A stretch of 64,000 bases of DNA, taken from positions 41,912,001 through 41,976,000 of the forward strand of contig OX597816.1 of NCBI GenBank assembly GCA_951406725.2. Reading direction: 5' to 3'. The DNA is from Octopus vulgaris. Its lineage: Eukaryota. Both the position numbers and the translations under genes were made by a program. The notes beneath the pieces are model-generated. The model was not told where the DNA came from. It saw nothing but the letters and a program-made list of their open reading frames with translations, and ran no database searches. Within the stretch, counting starts at the first letter, position 1, and each line of letters starts with the position of its first letter. This document shows positions 5,040-56,330 of this stretch, in pieces.

Positions 5040-5085
5040 AACACAACGTTTCGGCTTATATACCCTCCAGCATTCATCAGGTGTC
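5040..5085 (-). ncRNA. Minimal type I hammerhead ribozyme in a PLE pseudo-LTR
   Basis: Minus strand: GACAC-CUGAUGA-A-UGCU..AGCC-GAAAC-GU-U-GUGUU. Stem I is GACAC/GUGUU and stem III is the palindrome AACGUU. Confidence 0.7.
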
Positions 5086-29943: not shown

Positions 29944-30140
29944 GCATATATTCAAGGACTGTACTTATTTGAAACAACATAATTATTTTTTAGTAAAATA
30001 TAAATTGTTTTCATAATTAAAATACAGGGTTAGTAACCCAAGCATATATTCAAGGACTGTACTTATTTGAAACAACATAATTATTTTTTAGTAAAATATA
30101 AATTGTTTTCATAATTAAAATACAGGGTTAGTAACCCAAG
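29944..30140. repeat. Exact 98-bp tandem duplication
   Basis: GCATATATTCAAGGACTG...GTAACCCAA occurs at 29944 and again at 30042. Confidence 0.95.
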
Positions 30141-31639
30141 AAATGGAAACAATTCTGGAATTATTTTCCGATAGGTTAAATGTTGAATAGACTGTTATCA
30201 ATTAGGATCACGTCTAGAAAAAATAAGAGAAAATCATGATTCTATTTGTCTCGATGTTACTGTATTGATTAATAAATATACTGAACAGTGAGTATATATC
30301 ATTAATTCATCTTCACATTTGGGTTTATTTAAAATATAATTAACGATATTCGCTTTGCCCCCAGTTCATAATCTCAATATTCGTCCCCGCGTTAATCAAT
30401 AGATATCGTTATCGCTACTTATCTATTTCAAGCAAATGACATTAACGAGACAGGTTGAATTAAGGTCAGTAAAATGTATAATGTATTTCCAGTCCATATC
30501 TCGCAACTATGACCTGCTCTTCTCTATTATGCAAACATGTTGTTATAATTTAGAGATAATGTTATTATTTATTCAAACCTTTCGCCTTTATCCCAATAAA
30601 CATGAAGCAGTGTGCTTATTCAATCTTTAGAAATCTAGCTAAAGTTTCACTAAATTCAATTTACATTAAACGAGAGATTATTATAAATTTTGTAAAAAAA
30701 TAAACGAAATCATTTAACAGAGATCAGCTCCACAATACGGCCCAAAATATAATCTGGCTCCATATATATTTGGATGGTTTATTGATTATACTTGTTAATA
30801 TTCCATCAGAAAATGTATTTGCCATGAACTGCTAAAGTTTATAGTTCATTTTGAGTCAATCTTCGAGTATATTCGAAGCGCATTCCAAACTATGTCGACT
30901 GCACAGTTTCACTTTTGTGCCTGACGTTTCGGGTGTATATTTATTTATAACCACATTGTTGAAAAATAGTCATATATGATATCCGTTCAGATAGTCCAGA
31001 GTTCTGAGGCAAAATGGCAACTAACAGATTAAACTGATATAGAGCATATTACGATGTAATCATTTTGATTTCATTAAATTTTTAGGTTACAGGACGGACC
31101 ATCCCGAAATAGGGATAATTATTTTTTTTTAATTTACTTAATTTTCGATACAGTGAATCACATATGATTATAGAATCAAATAGATATTTTTATAGCAATG
31201 CAGATCGTGAATTTTTCGAACTTATGGCAAATAGATGTATGAACTTACGTATCGTACATATATCTACGGCTTTTTGCCACTTGTTGAAAGTGTTACAGAA
31301 ATTGTACTCTTTGATTTCGTGGATTTCCCGTTGGAGAAATTTCTTTTCACATGCCTACAAGTATCTGCTAGGAATGACATGTGAATAAACCAACTCATTC
31401 GTTAAATTTGGTACGGTTTGGTTGTGAATTATGAGAAATATTGGCGGCTTTCGGATCTTATAATTTCTGGAAACATTTCTTATTTCTTAGTAAACTTCTG
31501 TTGAAACACAGGATACGCAAGCCATTCCAAAACTCCTACTTCGAAAAGAAATGTTATATTAAAAATAGCAGAACATAAGAAGAACGGAGCGAAACAGTTG
31601 AAGAAGAAATAGAAGACGAGCTGTAAAGCAAGAACATGC

Positions 31640-39481: not shown

Positions 39482-40117
39482 GTGAAATAAATCCACTGAT
39501 TACAAAAATAGAAATAATACATTTCTAAATATCTCAGAGACTGTCACATTAAGTTGACAGTATACAACTTAATATTATCAATACGGACATTTTCTCTTGT
39601 TTTTGTATGATTTATGCAATAAAAATGTCATTGCCGAGGATGATAATTAGCTATGTTTGTGACATATTTTCATATTAAGTTGACATATTTTCACATTAAG
39701 TTGACAGTATACAACTACTCTATCGTACCACTACTGCATATATCTCTGAGCTATTTAGAAATATATTATTTCTATTTTTGTCATCAGTGGATATATTTCA
39801 CTAGAATTCTTATATGTTTACAAGAGATAGATAGACATCTCCAACTAGCAAGCCATATTATTCCAGACTGATGACGAGCAAAGACTCAGAAACTAGTTTC
39901 TGGTTGCAGGCTTAGCCGGGTGGGGTGCTTATCCCCCCTTGTAAGCATAAGAACTCAGGAAATGTGTCAAGGCCGACAGGAAGCGTTGCTGCTTCCTAGG
40001 GCTAAATAGGAGTAGTGTCATTTCCTTCATGGGACTGTCACATTTCGTTGACTGTATACAACTACTCTATCTACTGCATATATCTCTCTGAGATAATTAG
40101 AAATGTATTATTTCTAA
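39482..40117 (+). mobile_element. Retrozyme-like tandem repeat (~347-nt unit, ~1.2 copies plus inverted and partial pieces)
   Basis: TCACATT..GTTGAC recurs at 39691 and 40038. HHR at 39863-39903. 39482-39540 is an inverted copy of 39743-39801. Confidence 0.8.
39863..39903 (+). ncRNA. Minimal type I hammerhead ribozyme
   Basis: CCAGA-CUGAUGA-CGAG-CAAAGA-CUCA-GAAAC-UA-GUU-UCUGG. Confidence 0.8.
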
Positions 40118-48376: not shown

Positions 48377-50767
48377 TAACTTAGAATAACTTAGAAAGGT
48401 TTTGGCCAGTATTGGCCTAGGCCTAACTTAATAGCACCACCTGGAGAAGTCTTTCAATTCAGGATTTGAGCAACGAGGCCCATTCGAGCAGAGAGTTATT
48501 GTTTGCGGAGACATATCCGGGTGAGGGTGGTTTGTCCGGGACTGTTTGAAGGAATTTGTCCAAAGACTTCTTGAATTTTGTGTGGTCAGTTTCTGTTTTG
48601 ACGTGTCCTGGTGTAATGTTGAAGAGAGCGGGTCCAATCGAGGTGAAATAGTTGTGCCGTATTGTCGTTATGTGATGCGATTTAGATTTTTGTTGTGGAC
48701 GGATGGCACGTGGTCCAAGCCTTGGATGTATTTTGAAGGTGATGCCAACATCATTCGGACAGTGCTGATGAAATATTTTCCACATCATATAGATAATGTA
48801 GCGTTCACGGCGTCGTTGGAGTGAATACAGTTTCAGCTTCTCTAGTCTACTCCAGTAGTCAAGGTCTGACATGCCATCTATTTTTTTTGTGATTGACCTT
48901 TGGGGAGCTTCAATTCTCATAATATTTTGTTTTGTGTAGGGAGACCACAGTGGACAGCATTATTCAAGATGGGGTCGGGCAAAATTGGAGAAGAGAAGGA
49001 TAATAGTGTGGGAATCTCTCGACTGGAAGGTTCTGAGAATCCAGGAACACATTCTGCGGGCCATGTCAACTTTGCTGCTTATATGTGTAGCCCAGCTTAT
49101 GTTGTTGTCCACTGTTACTCCCACGTCTCTGATGTTGTTGGACGCCATGAGAATTTCTCCAGAAGGAAGGGAGTATGGGAGTTTCAGAGCGTCCACCCTT
49201 CCAAAGTGGATCAGTTCGAATGTGTCTTCGTTTAGCAACATGTTGTTCTTTTCCGCCCACTGGACAACAGCCAGTAGGTCTGACTGGAGGCTTATTCGGT
49301 CATCCATGACATAGATGACCTTCTGGAGCTTGGAATCATCAGCGAAGGTTCTCATGTTACTGTGTTTGATGGTGTCAGTAATATCATTTATGTAGATGAT
49401 GAAGAGAAGTGGGCCCAAAACAGTGCGTTGTGGGACATCACTGCTGACTTTGGCTGGGCTGGATTTGACTCCTTCGACTACAACATGTTGGGTTCTGGTA
49501 GACAGGAAGCACTTGATCCACTTCAGTAGCTTTCCAGTGACACCAATATTGGACAGCCTTCTCAAAAGGATCATATGACCAACCCTGTCAAAGGCCATGC
49601 TGAAATCAAGGTAGATGACATCAGTGTTGGAACCATCTCCCAAGGCTCTCAAAATGTCATCAAAATGATGCAGTAGCTGCGTCAGGCAATCTTTTCCATT
49701 ACGGAATCCATGCTGGTTGGAGTTCAGCATATTATGACTCTCAAGGAAGTGAGTCATACGCGATCTCAGCATTCTCTCAAATACCTTAATGATATGAGAG
49801 GTGAGTGAGATTGGACGGTAATTCACGGCAAGCGATTTGTTTCCTTTTTTGAAAACTGGGACAACAGACTGGGATAGAAGGTCTTCTGGTATATATCCTG
49901 CATCCAGTGAGTTCCGCCACATATTGGCTAGAGGGGGTGCAAGTTGGTTTTGACACATCTTCAAGACACAAGCAGGGAACCTATCGGGACCTACTGCTGA
50001 ATTATGCTTCATTTCTTTTATTGCTGCTAAGACATCAGGAGCGCCAAAGGTTATGTCCGATAAAGTGTATTGGGGAGTAACATCACTGATACAGCCCAGA
50101 TCAGTCATATCAGGATTGCTGAAAACAGAGCAATATTGTTTCTGCAATATCTCTCCCATGGTTTTGGCATTGTCTTGAAGAGTACCATTTTCATCAATCA
50201 GAGGGCCAACAGTAGAACCAGTGACTCTGTGTTTTTTTGCAAATGAAAAGAACACTTTGGGATTGAGTTTGATCTTCTCAATGGCCCAGGCCTCTTCAGC
50301 TCTTCGCTGACTATTGATGATAGACATCATGTTGTTTTGGAGTTTATGTTTTTTAATCTCTAGCGACGAGATGGCAGTCAGGTTGGTGTGTTGCTGTTGA
50401 CAGTATTTCAGCTTGTTGATTTTTTTGTTAATTCTTTTAATTTTCCTGATGAGAAATTTTCTATTTCTAGGGATTCGACACTTAGATTTGTTTGCAGATC
50501 TTAATGGGATGTGTTTTGCACATATGTTCGTAATGGTGTCTACAAATGACTGCCAGGACTTTTTGGTGTTAGTGGGTGTGCATATGTGCGTGAAGGACCA
50601 ATCGACTTGTGCAAGATCATTATTGATCGCTTCCCAGTTTGCATTGTGGAAATCCATAGTGTCAAATGGATGAACAGGAGGGATGGCATTTGTTTTGCAA
50701 TTTGGCCGGTGAAATCTCAGATCACAGAGAACCATGTCATGATCAGTGAGTAGGGTTTTCCCCACTG
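48377..50767 (-). mobile_element. CR1-group LINE, 5'-truncated
   Basis: ORF2 runs from the end of the APE domain to the C-terminus. 3' tail is (TTCTAAGTTA)2. Confidence 0.9.
48459..50765 (-). pseudogene. LINE ORF2 (APE C-terminus + RT) with one in-frame stop at 48960-48962
   Basis: TDHDMV, YRPISLTS, NQHGFR, YLDFSMAFDRV, VPQRTVLGPLLF, FADDSKL, HLE*CCPLWSP, LYSLQRRRER. The two listed ORFs are in the same frame. Confidence 0.9.
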
Positions 50768-52887: not shown

Positions 52888-53298
52888 TTAAAAAAATCAG
52901 TGAATGTATTTCACTAGAAATATGTTTTCGGAGCGGATAGGCATCGACATCTAGCTGCTCTAGACTGATGATGAGCAATGACTCTGAAACTAGTCTCTGG
53001 TTGCTGGCTTTGCTGAGTGGATGTGCCTGTCTCCATTTTGAAAACATAAGGACACAGAAAATGCATCAAGTTCAACAGGAAACGATGTTTCCGAGGGCTA
53101 AATCACAGTAGCATTCTTCCTTTCATGGGACAGTCATATTAAGTTGACAACATACTATCACTTTATCGTGTTACTGCTGCATAAATCTCTCTGAGAGATT
53201 TCGAAATGTATTATATCTATTTTCAAAAATCAGAGAATGTATTTCACTTGAAATATATAGGTTTTCAAAGGCATATAGTCACCGACAGCTAGCAAGCC
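52888..53298 (+). mobile_element. Retrozyme-like repeat, first unit of the second locus
   Basis: Homologous to 39780-40117. AAAATCAG.GAATGTATTTCACT recurs at ~52893 and ~53226. Confidence 0.8.
52960..53000 (+). ncRNA. Minimal type I hammerhead ribozyme with canonical core
   Basis: CUAGA-CUGAUGA-UGAG-CAAUGA-CUCU-GAAAC-UA-GUC-UCUGG. Confidence 0.88.
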
Positions 53299-55249
53299 TG
53301 CGCCTTTTATAGTTTTTTGGGTCACTCATGGGTTCTGGTGGTGAGTTCCTCGACGTGAGTTCGAGTCGTTACACACTGATATTGTATGTTTTTTGTGTCT
53401 CCCCGCGCGCGTGAACCAAGATTCCTTGAATTGTTTAAATTGTTGAATTTTAGTCACTGTTTTGTTTGCATCTGTATATTCCCCGTTTACGGGAGAAGTG
53501 AAGAAAGAAAGAGAGATGGAGAATAGACAAAGTCCCGCAGCGGCAACGACCCGTGGAATAAATGCCAACACCCTGGAAGTACAGGAAATAGAAATTGACA
53601 CAAGAAAGTGGAGGGAAGGAAGCAAATTGGTAAAAAAGGAGGGAGCCAGTCTAAAGCCGACTCCTCCAGAAGAACTGTTGTCTACGACCTCGAACACGAT
53701 AGAATTAGCCCCAACATAAGAAATAGAGAAGTGTCTGGAAAAAGTTAAAAGATTGACCACATTCTATACACGTGGTAGAAAGTATGGCACAGTGTAAGTA
53801 AGGTGTGGCAACGAAGAAGATGCCATAAAACAATCCACGGACCTGTTACTGATAACAAAACGGATACTACTTCTGATATACTGTGGCAAACACGTTGCGA
53901 GATTGAGTGTTGGAAAAGTGCCCCCCGAAACCGAGGAAGAATGACCGGTGGCAGCCATACCGCACGAAATATAGGAGTAATTTTATTCAGCTGAATATAC
54001 GTCATTAATTGGTTGAAATTAGCGAAACACGACAACTTTAACACGAAATAACTTCGTAAATATAAACTTTTCTCAAAATCGCTAAGTGTAAAAGATGTGA
54101 CACATTCTACCAGTATACGAATTTTGAAAGTATTTAGTTACAAAAAATTATTTTGTAACTCTGCCGGACAAAAGGTAAAGATCCAATGGCGAAAACTGTG
54201 GATTTACCAATCGGTGAAAAACTGAAAGTAATGCAGCAGGGGAGACCCCCAAACTGTTACGGATGCGGTGAAAGAGGACACCTGAGAAGAAAATGCCCTA
54301 GAGCAGCAGTACAAATGGTGGAAGAATAGCAGAAGCAGAAAACAGAGTATGATGGGAATTTGTCGGAAGTAAAACCCAGGAAAACAGAGGGAAGAAATTC
54401 ACCGACGACAGTGGAAGTGAAGAAGTGTAAAGAAATGGAAAAAGAAACTCAACCTACGACGAGAATTGGAGAAAACTTACCAGAGAAAGTACCAGCAAAT
54501 GAATTAGAATAACAGAGTCATGCAGACCAGAAACAAGACAACCCAGAAGTACGGAAACCTAAAAACATAGACACACAGAAGAAACACTTATAATTACAGT
54601 CAAACGAACACACAGACATACAAAAACACGAATGAACAGACTTAGAAACGAACATACAAGAACACACAAAACAGCAGGAAAATACAAACAAAAAGAGACA
54701 ACATGAAAAACAAATATAAAAGGAAAATGATAGTGAGATAGGACACCCCAACGTAAAGGATTGTGAACGTGAAAGACATTGTGAGAGACAGAAGAGGTAA
54801 GTCGATACAATTTTGTAAAGACTGTATTTATTTATAATATTTATTTGAATTTTTAAGGAAAAAAAGATAAACAAGTAATTTTGCGAGTGTCGAATGAATA
54901 CGTTTCCCAATGTTTTAAAAAAATTATGTGATGTACATTTGGTTGACATTAATTTAAAAAAAAAAGGTAAAATAAGAAGTAAATCCTGTTTGAACATTTG
55001 TTTAAAAGGTGTAATTATAGAGCGAAAGCGAAAATGTAAGCCGCAGCTTCGCCTCGGAGAGTGGCTAGAGGTTGTATCATAAGTTAATAGTAAAGGAATA
55101 CACGGTTTCATTTCGCAGCGGGACGAGATGGCCAGCTCATTTGCATTGTAAATTATTCATTTCACCTTCATCCTTCATATGTTTTATATTCCCGCTTGTA
55201 TTTGTATGTCCCCTCTGTAATTAGGCCTTGTGCCTGATATAAAAGATTC
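53299..55249 (+). mobile_element. ORF1-only non-LTR (L1/Tx1-like) element A
   Basis: Decayed ORF1 from ATG 53516. Zinc knuckle GRPPNCYGCGERGHLRRKC (CX2CX4HX4C, 54255-54296). No RT seen. Flanked by AGCTAGCAAGC at 53287-53297 and 55250-55260. Confidence 0.7.
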
Positions 55250-55260
55250 AGCTAGCAAGC

Positions 55261-55760
55261 TACTTTTGTTTTTTTGAAGAAATCGAAGCGAGAATTTTTG
55301 TGCGAAGCCACCATCGTTGGGTGGTAGTGAATAATGAAAGAAAAGAAAAGTTACGCAGAAGCTGCTGGAGGTCGAGATGCTATAGACCCACGTATGCTGA
55401 AGCCGAATAGGATGGAGAGGAATAAACAGAAGATACCAAAATATTATGGCATGAAAAAAAAGGGTCAAACGAAAAAGAAATGACCCTGGAAGAGGAGGAA
55501 AAAGGAAAACGGAAAGCAGAACGGCGATATTCTGATCATTTTCAAATGAAAATAGGAGAACAGAACACACACCGCAGGAAGAGATAGAGAAAATATTGAA
55601 GGTACAAATGGATTAAGGAATAACTTTCTTTACAAGAGGGAGGAAATACGCAGCGTTGTAAATATATTCATTTTAGATTCATCCTTCATATGTTTTATTT
55701 TCCCGCATGTCTTTGTATGTCCCTTCTGTAATTCGGCATTATGCCTGTAATAAAGAATTA
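55261..55760 (+). mobile_element. Internally deleted related element B
   Basis: MKEKKSYAEAA start. TFFTRGRKY matches TFYTRGRKY in element A. The 3' ~105 bp (55656-55760) are homologous to 55146-55249. Followed by AGCTAGGAAGC. Confidence 0.7.
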
Positions 55761-56108
55761 AGCTAGGAAGCCATGCTACTCCAGACTGATGATGAGCAAT
55801 GACTCTGAAACTAGTCTCTGATTGCTGGCTTTGCTGTGTGGAGGTGCTTCTCTCCCCTTTGAAGACATAAGGACACAGGTAATGTGTCAAGTGCAACAGG
55901 AAACGGTATTTCCTAGGGCTAAATAACAGTAGCATCACATCTTTGAACAGGGCTTTATTCTCAATTCAAATTCAAACGAGTACGTGAAACTGTTAGGGAC
56001 AACCATGATCAAAATTTGATTAGATAATGTTGCTACTGAAAGGTCAAATATGACGAAACATGATTCGGCTCCTTATCACGTTAAGTTGGCAACATACAAC
56101 CACTTTAA
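55761..56108 (+). mobile_element. Retrozyme-like repeat resuming after the insertions, interrupted at 55937-56075 by a transposase fragment
   Basis: 55761-55936 matches 52960-53115 and 56076-56108 matches 53135-53165. Confidence 0.75.
55781..55821 (+). ncRNA. Minimal type I hammerhead ribozyme with canonical core
   Basis: CCAGA-CUGAUGA-UGAG-CAAUGA-CUCU-GAAAC-UA-GUC-UCUGA. Confidence 0.88.
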
Positions 56109-56330
56109 CCATTTCTGACTTCTTTCAGCAGTCTGATAAGGGGGCAGATCCTGCTGCGTCATATATGGCCTTTCAGTAGCAACACTAATCAAATTTTGGC
56201 CACGGTCGTCTTCAACAGTTTCACATACTCGTTTGAACTGAGAATAAAGCCCTGTTCAAAGAAGTGGAGCGGCCTGATATCACCCTCAGTGAAGACACAC
56301 CAAAGTCCCTCGCAATTTCTGGCAATATGG
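55937..56330. mobile_element. Two inverted maT-like transposase fragments
   Basis: FEQGFIL..NEYVKLL.T..I....VATER....DSAP on + (55940-56072) and on - (56140-56262). Confidence 0.7.

Follow-up and report, generated by a model that had tools for sequence, protein, structure and literature searches.

A LINE lineage of Octopus vulgaris inserts at a fixed base of hammerhead retrozymes and at the first nucleotide of U2 snRNA genes

We analysed a stretch of 64,000 nucleotides of Octopus vulgaris DNA (assembly GCA_951406725.2, contig OX597816.1, positions 41,912,001 to 41,976,000 of the forward strand), referred to here as the window, in which two copies of a long interspersed nuclear element (LINE), elements A and B, are stacked in a tandem of hammerhead-bearing retrozymes of the family that we call T1. 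All of the following features are on the forward strand. An ATCAGTG motif (52896–52902) resembling a proximal sequence element (PSE) belongs to the upstream retrozyme unit, and the same motif is found ahead of the genes of the small nuclear RNAs (snRNAs) U1 and U2. The upstream T1-family unit itself (52949–53228, hammerhead core 52965–52995) has partly lost its own target start. It is followed by a PSE-like motif of the variant ATCAGAG (53229–53235), 58 nt upstream of the insertion point, and by a TATA-like box (53254–53259, −33 to −28 nt relative to that point). The left target duplication, AGCTAGCAAGCC (53287–53298), opens at the cut, position 53287, which is also the putative transcription start (+1). 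Next come element A (53299–55249), a decayed and possibly chimeric LINE that has only a first open reading frame (ORF1) with stops and frameshifts; the middle target duplication, AGCTAGCAAGC (55250–55260), separating A from B; element B (55261–55760), an internally deleted copy of a common ORF1-only family with about 390 nt of 5' part and 110 nt of 3' end; and the right target duplication, AGCTAGGAAGCC (55761–55772), which is the start of the downstream retrozyme unit. This unit contains a type I hammerhead motif (55781–55821, core 55786–55792) with a palindromic short helix III, a GUC triplet at 55814–55816 and a predicted cleavage site after 55816. Its remainder (55822–55935) is broken off after 55935, where an imperfect inverted repeat (55936–56266, 72%) interrupts the unit; a short T1-like stretch recurs near 56075–56110. 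In the window sequence, AGCTAGCAAGC occurs at 53287 and 55250 and AGCTAGGAAGC at 55761, and hammerhead cores (CTGATGA...GAAAC) start at 39868, 52965 and 55786. The order retrozyme, A, B and hammerhead had been proposed in an earlier reading of the window (the original prediction), and the motifs, cores and GUC triplet lie where it had placed them. The uninterrupted site that it had reported at 39844–39874 is also present, as part of an empty T1-type site (39783–39903) with a PSE-like motif at 39783–39789, a target start at about 39844 and a core at 39868. When A, B and the surplus duplications are subtracted, what is left is a tandem of T1 units of about 345 nt, each containing a single type I hammerhead motif.

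Element A encodes an ORF1 zinc knuckle (zf-CCHC, 54252–54299; E = 0.00028, 21.3 bits) and is interrupted by an unrelated repeat of very high copy number (approximate ends 53972 and 54184), as judged from depth and loose ends. A remnant of the second open reading frame (ORF2) at the 3' end of A, suspected from the translation, was discarded, as no ORF2 remnant was detected in A by tblastn; none was seen in B either, which has an AATAAA at 55749–55754. The 5' and 3' halves of A differ in their best relatives, and thus A may be chimeric. At the DNA level only the 3' ends of A and B align (55143–55260 vs. 55653–55771, 84.9%). The closest match elsewhere to the 3' end of B reaches 92.7% (L011), and the closest matches to that of A reach 92% (L002 and L003). 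Since each element is nearer to copies elsewhere, they do not represent a local duplication, in agreement with the earlier proposal of two separate insertions at one base. The proposed target duplication of about 11 bp holds for the window, where it measures 11–12 bp, but not for the family as a whole, with 10–25 bp in other copies and 14 bp in the youngest.

The genome (2.8 Gb, 227 contigs) was searched with the family 3' end of A (55140–55249; query 55140–55250), and the flanks of all 40 scored hits from 129 candidates were read and classified by eye. A hammerhead-type repeat, in several cases with a decayed core, follows within about 30 nt in 22 of the 40; a target start and then another element follow in 17. 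The single copy away from the target (L008) has a 17-bp duplication that resembles the T1 start. Thus, 39 of 40 3' ends adjoin either the start of a retrozyme or the target start of a stacked insertion, the threshold for target preference in the accessible text of PMC4494074 being 20%. This genome-wide tabulation had been suggested as a check, and its outcome is as specificity would predict. The target is T1 at 19 of these 39 and one of four further hammerhead repeat types at the rest. Two loci (L023 and L024) are identical, lie 5.7 kb apart and are probably one local duplication. In searches that started from the target, insertions occupy 7 of 30 loci matching the left flank, with one place counted twice, and 5 of 30 loci matching the right flank, the window included, and an exact-pattern search for T1 returned 55 empty sites and ten filled candidates, eight of which are truly filled. 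Empty sites therefore outnumber filled ones, indicating that the target motif belongs to the target and not to the end of the element. Moreover, one 3' end adjoins five different target sequences, and a single T1 base is adjoined by several distinct LINE 3' ends. Judged from these insertions, together with the regenerated duplications and the autonomous partners described below, site-specific targeting by this LINE lineage, which had been proposed for the hammerhead repeat, is established.

In the A/B family a frame of 371 aa stands directly before the 3' end (L007 and L010; likewise L103, L109 and L110), and L103 has both ends inside the target. HAL1 (half-L1) elements are non-autonomous, L1-derived elements in which ORF1 is directly followed by the 3' end, and they are not known to be target-specific; the A/B family has the same layout, ORF1 and then the 3' end without ORF2, in many copies. 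The target type follows the tree of the ORF1-only family, with 8 changes compared to a mean of 14.9 and a minimum of 10 on shuffling (0/500; six short copies dropped), which may reflect RNA-assisted choice or successive partners. At T3-type 5' junctions (L007, L010, L011, L094, L274 and L346), a few shared bases are the reverse complement of the target continuation, an inherited variant.

Autonomous relatives, encoding an apurinic endonuclease-like domain (APE) and a reverse transcriptase (RT), occupy the same position in about ten retrozyme families. Among 30 loci of a second 3'-end family, 5 lack the 3' end, 19 of the other 25 end at retrozyme starts and 6 end elsewhere. Remnants with ORF1, APE and RT start or end at the very same T1 base (L092, L099, L272 and L277); two complete elements have both ends in the target and a 17-bp duplication each (L278 and L280), and three 5'-truncated copies sit at the same cut (L276, L279 and L281). 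In all 12 representatives scored, the cut falls between a pyrimidine and an A (Y/A, the slash marking the cut), 23–27 nt ahead of the catalytic core. One element inserted in a retrozyme (L388) has an intact ORF2 with Exo_endo_phos, RVT_1 and zf-RVT domains; it shares a preserved ORF2 frame of 1134 aa with L405, and the zf-CCHC match of its ORF1 is slightly below the cut-off. The search for an autonomous APE+RT partner, suggested beforehand as a check, thus turned up relatives at this target position, in some cases with an intact ORF2.

We built a tree of ORF2 proteins without three fragments of less than 150 residues. Copies inserted in retrozymes, in U2 or off target group together in it as a single clade (21 rows, support 100). 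Its sister is a young family inserted in (ATT)n (L267 and L141–L170), in which many copies have a whole ORF2 of 1145 aa, with 91–99% identity over 150 scored hits, and which ends on (ATT)n at 30 of 30 loci. This family also forms head-to-tail arrays of 5.87-kb units, about ten of them on contig C50, another example being G000:C4:93.80–93.83 Mb. The sister ORF2 (L267) scored 323 bits against Tx1L (P0325) and 176 bits against human L1 ORF2p. The original prediction had placed the elements in the Tx1 clade; the zinc-knuckle ORF1, the ORF2 with APE, RT and zinc finger, and the score nearer to Tx1L than to human L1 agree with this. However, the RT tree, which included one named Tx1 and no animal L1, leaves the clade of this lineage and that of Tx1L in an unresolved fork and does not place it. 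We therefore regard membership in the Tx1 clade as likely from the protein comparisons. Among named sequences, the ORF2 lineage has its best relative in Argonauta, the ESM Atlas returned generic APE+RT clusters only, and a metagenome scan for relatives yielded 197 pattern matches and no relatives.

A young family of the lineage links retrozymes to snRNA genes. At 2 of 30 U2 loci a LINE 3' end abuts U2 nucleotide 1, and the 14 bp from U2 +1 to +14 are duplicated. A search with this 3' end gave 30 loci, comprising 19 retrozyme starts (families T9–T11), 5 insertions at U2 +1, 3 stacked copies, 2 off-target copies and 1 locus without the end; thus, 27 of 29 complete 3' ends are on target. All targets of the family start with ATCG, and among them are repeats whose cores depart from CUGANGA. 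Twelve retrozyme-inserted copies with both junctions have a 14-nt duplication followed by the T run of the element, ten of them exactly. Full-length young LINEs whose leader stems from a retrozyme lie in U2 arrays at nucleotide 1 behind a 14-bp duplication (L337:4065–9622, L338:4090–9663 and L406). In the U2-inserted copies (four, on two contigs), the 14 nt after the U2 duplication match T10 +1 to +14 at 13 of 14 positions. This T10-like leader begins exactly at the T10 cut and is as long as the duplication (14 nt). The simplest reading of these junctions is that a master inserted in T10 was transcribed from the cut base, so that its RNA would start with the duplicated target. Such a leader would anneal in retrozyme targets and thereby be hidden, whereas in U2 it would find no partner to anneal to and be kept. 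At T1, element-specific variants are found repeatedly a few bases into the 5' junction; CAC, for example, is present in 11 of 22 rows followed by an element and in 1 of 62 rows followed by a hammerhead. Such variants would fit a target-like 5' end that is inherited. As a separate observation, the first six bases of the T10 retrozyme start (L364, L368 and L373) resemble U2 (L307–L336) and the next six U1 (L407–L436), a hint that the 5' end of T10 might derive from an snRNA gene.

The insertion base lies at a constant distance behind a motif shared with snRNA genes. In U2 genes ATCAGT or ATTAGT is located at −57 to −61 (28 of 28, two LINE-bearing loci excluded), and in U1 genes an ATCAG motif is located at −56 to −59 (27 of 30). 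In retrozymes, ATCAG occurs at −54 to −60 from the cut in 10 of 21 T1, 12 of 19 T2 and 7 of 15 T3 copies, and at −58 in the window; many of the retrozymes without it at the expected offset are 5'-truncated. The distance from cut to motif is constant despite differing start sequences (AGCT, ACCT, ATCT, ATCA and ATCG). U2 genes also have a TATA-like sequence at the same place as the retrozymes. U6 was ruled out as the promoter model, since the upstream regions of the 20 best U6 hits have no ATCAG motif at that place. Separately, tandem U6-like genes at G000:C1:139.42 Mb (L295–L299) have octamer-like and TATA motifs upstream and no U1/U2 motif. In the newt, satellite II reportedly has an snRNA promoter, which is used by RNA polymerase II (Pol II; accessible text of PMC2220036). 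Contigs from runs that we guess to be RNA cover T1 and T9 units, some spanning the putative start, and are uninformative on starts, ends and strand; we read nothing into their absence from the 5' end of the young LINE. The insertion base would map a likely start and promoter of invertebrate retrozymes, whose transcription is not dealt with in the accessible texts.

Taken together, we favour the reading that a Tx1-like lineage inserts at a fixed base of retrozymes and at the first base of U2, that transcription from an snRNA-type promoter likely starts at this base, and that the promoter is likely used by the LINE; we give this reading a probability of roughly two in three. The fixed cut (Y/A), the target duplication, the stacking at regenerated sites, the presence of autonomous APE+RT relatives at this position, the insertion at U2 +1 and the ATCAG motif 54–61 nt upstream are established as features of the assembled copies. 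In the mechanism we propose, the ORF2 endonuclease of an autonomous relative would nick the Y/ATC-like or C/AGCT start and prime reverse transcription, A and B being mobilised in trans. Pol II would initiate at the cut, giving a LINE RNA that opens with about 14 target-derived bases, which would anneal at the 5' junction. The duplication would rebuild the target RNA gene behind the element and leave the site open to further hits. The distance of 25 nt to the downstream hammerhead would follow from a retrozyme transcript that begins at its hairpin edge, and not from any need of the LINE for the ribozyme.

As a tentative extension of the mechanism, which we consider rather doubtful, the LINE RNA might have target-derived bases at both ends, and pairing of these ends with nicked DNA might help in target choice. 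If so, each copy would bias its progeny toward its own type of small-RNA gene, and a change of RNA ends alone would re-aim the element, accounting for the spread over about ten retrozyme families and U2. The agreement between target type and the tree of the ORF1-only family speaks for such guidance; against it, related copies have common target labels in any case, and one copy whose leader matches T10 moved into U2.

Several points weigh against the favoured reading. The four leader-bearing U2 copies probably stem from one event, and a template jump onto retrozyme RNA could also supply the leader, although such a jump onto T10 RNA would likewise mean an RNA with its 5' end on the cut base. For T1 itself, no young autonomous family was found, and the T1-inserted ORF2s are decayed. 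About half of the scored retrozyme copies lack the motif at the expected offset, and the off-target copies sit where there is no motif at −58. A LINE at +1 was found in 0 of 30 U1 loci vs. 2 of 30 U2 loci, numbers too small to interpret. Promoters of RNA polymerase III (Pol III) typically have a TATA-like box at about −31. The T run at the beginning of the element would terminate Pol III, and U2 genes share TATA-like sequence at this place, so that the box does not tell the two polymerases apart.

A distinctly less likely explanation is safe-harbour targeting of the Tx1 type, in which the endonuclease reads a short conserved 5'-end sequence, an internal promoter drives the LINE and the leader is due to a one-off template jump. 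This explanation accommodates the off-target copies, which retain Y/A or ATCGC without a promoter motif, as well as the ATCG shared by all young-family targets and the sister family with its 30 of 30 loci on (ATT)n. Tx1-Mar families, too, have acquired U1 and U2 heads according to the accessible text of PMC4494074. However, the leader has the length of the duplication and starts at the cut, and the distance from cut to motif is kept though the start sequences differ, both of which speak against this explanation.

In the original prediction the ribozyme repeat as such was the target, and the downstream hammerhead might also cut the 3' end of the LINE transcript. The call of a ribozyme in these repeats, which have units of 339–347 nt and gave 2001 first-look candidates in the genome search, is based on the core motif and helix I, which are kept across families of differing sequence while still pairing. 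Rfam matched no hammerhead in the window, whether the gathering threshold was applied or E values of up to 5 were admitted, and an Rfam scan of nine loci, mostly off-target, had no hits other than sub-threshold ones to microRNAs and snoRNAs of microsatellite type. The helix II base of T1 is mismatched, and six hammerhead regions gave weak z-scores on folding (−0.2 to −1.9). The first target bases are predicted to pair in an extended stem, which would explain where the repeat starts. As regards a possible derivation of the repeats from the pLTR of a Penelope-like element, inverted 5' partial copies are frequent, and no Penelope partner was found, none of 30 GIY-YIG loci having a T1–T4 hammerhead within 1.5 kb. 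A young Penelope-like family (L183, L188 and others) has an open frame of 781 aa in many copies, and no link to T1–T4 was found.

A requirement of the LINE for the hammerhead, which would cut the read-through transcript 56 nt behind the element and define a 3' end for priming, appears quite improbable to us. It would agree with the position of the cut 23–27 nt ahead of the core in all scored families, with the ribozyme being left whole by the insertion, and with the missing poly(A) tail at most junctions. However, the element has its own terminal AATAAA, and A runs are found at a few junctions. The U2-inserted copies have no ribozyme and are nevertheless stacked and present on two contigs, and what follows A is B and not a ribozyme. 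In addition, several targets have altered cores, besides the helix II mismatch of T1. As a negative control, we examined a frequent minimal hammerhead-like repeat that has (AAT)n upstream and no promoter motif (minus strand at 5080 and about 44717 of the window; L038, L040, L071 and L096). This family, with 11 context rows, follows none of the 3' ends examined. From the U2 copies, the order of A and B and this control we take the ribozyme not to be required; by the pattern of insertions it appears to be a bystander rather than the target, cleavage of read-through transcripts being a possible side effect. The ribozyme as determinant was therefore given up, as the same young family sits at U2 nucleotide 1 without one and before cores deviating from CUGANGA, and the constant feature is the start position behind the snRNA-type promoter motif.

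We judge it slightly more improbable still that the LINE ribonucleoprotein is tethered by protein, binding the snRNA promoter complex (snRNA-activating protein complex, SNAPc) and being placed at +1 in this way. In yeast, TFIIIB positions Ty3 at Pol III starts in a comparable manner. A constant offset from the promoter motif across differing start sequences would follow naturally; however, stacked insertions (17 of 40) have a LINE 3' end and no promoter upstream, U1 loci are hit in 0 of 30 cases, and off-target sites lack the motif. Finally, the absence of any targeting, with the motif as the element's own end, with hitchhiking in an amplifying retrozyme or with A and B as a local duplication, has a negligible probability, for although some loci are local duplicates (L023/L024), empty sites outnumber filled ones, the same 3' end stands at five target sequences and distinct LINE 3' ends at one T1 base, 5'-truncated copies also lie at the cut, and A and B are each nearer to copies elsewhere, so that random flanks, a motif belonging to the element terminus and local duplication of A and B, the outcomes named beforehand as refuting, are all contradicted.

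LINEs that target other repeats are known. For the Tx1 clade the accessible text of PMC4494074 lists DNA transposons, LTR elements, microsatellites, U2, U5, 5S and unspecified satellites. The set compared here comprises Xenopus Tx1L in Tx1D and the crocodilian Tx1-Mar, Tx1-8_Crp, Tx1-4_AMi and Tx1-9_AMi (PMC4494074, as accessible). Like these, the octopus lineage has a zinc-knuckle ORF1, an ORF2 with APE, RT and zinc finger and a fixed position in another mobile element; stacked insertions, microsatellite sister families and, in some, snRNA-derived 5' heads are further common features. Unlike here, retrozymes are not named and sites are not called transcription starts in that accessible text, although repeats of this kind might be among its 'Sat' targets. 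Keno (Tx1 clade) and Utopia share the insertion specific to U2 snRNA genes, which is sometimes tandem, but their 3' flank starts from U2 nucleotide 39, whereas here it starts from nucleotide 1, so that the whole U2 coding sequence stands behind the element, and the same family is also found in retrozymes (comparison with the accessible part of PMC4640811). R2, as described in the accessible text of PMC4494074, is co-transcribed with 28S rRNA, and thus likewise relies on transcription of the target, with target-derived RNA ends aiding integration. Unlike the octopus lineage, it uses a restriction-like endonuclease, lies within the gene and relies on a ribozyme of its own to release its 5' end; an insertion at +1 would need no such processing.

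The target repeats resemble animal non-LTR retrozymes and newt satellite 2 in their units of about 340–350 nt with a type I hammerhead (PMC7229834 and bioRxiv 10.64898/2026.07.22.740005, accessible parts), and animal retrozymes also in their tandem and dispersed copies and palindromic short helix III (PMC7229834, accessible part). In size and motif the octopus repeats, known here from sequence, fall within non-LTR retrozymes (about 170–400 nt, type I hammerhead). Animal retrozymes have been described as Penelope derivatives (bioRxiv 10.64898/2026.07.22.740005, accessible part). LINE insertion into retrozymes is not mentioned in the accessible parts of the retrozyme literature (PMC7229834 and bioRxiv 10.64898/2026.07.22.740005), and those of PMC1950540 and PMC8869645 contain nothing on retrozyme or snRNA-start targets. 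An octopus repeat annotation reports active L1-Tx1 families and gives no targets in its accessible text (PMC13282606). LINE targeting of retrozymes, of U2 nucleotide 1 or of snRNA-type starts in general was not found in the literature searched, which did not include subscription papers, Repbase Reports and supplements. APE-type site-specific LINEs would gain an additional target class, consisting of retrozymes and the first nucleotide of U2. By landing on the start base, the LINE would acquire a promoter, and behind it the host RNA gene would be made whole again. With young copies that have a whole ORF2, several natural targets and a microsatellite sister family, target switching of the APE and the contribution of RNA ends are directly testable, and the question of target switching bears on tools for site-specific gene insertion.

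Two further features of the window lie apart from the stacked elements. A piece of another RT, with 32% to a Tx1-like RT, is located on the minus strand at 49380–49673, and a 98-bp tandem duplication with two identical copies is located at 29944–30166.

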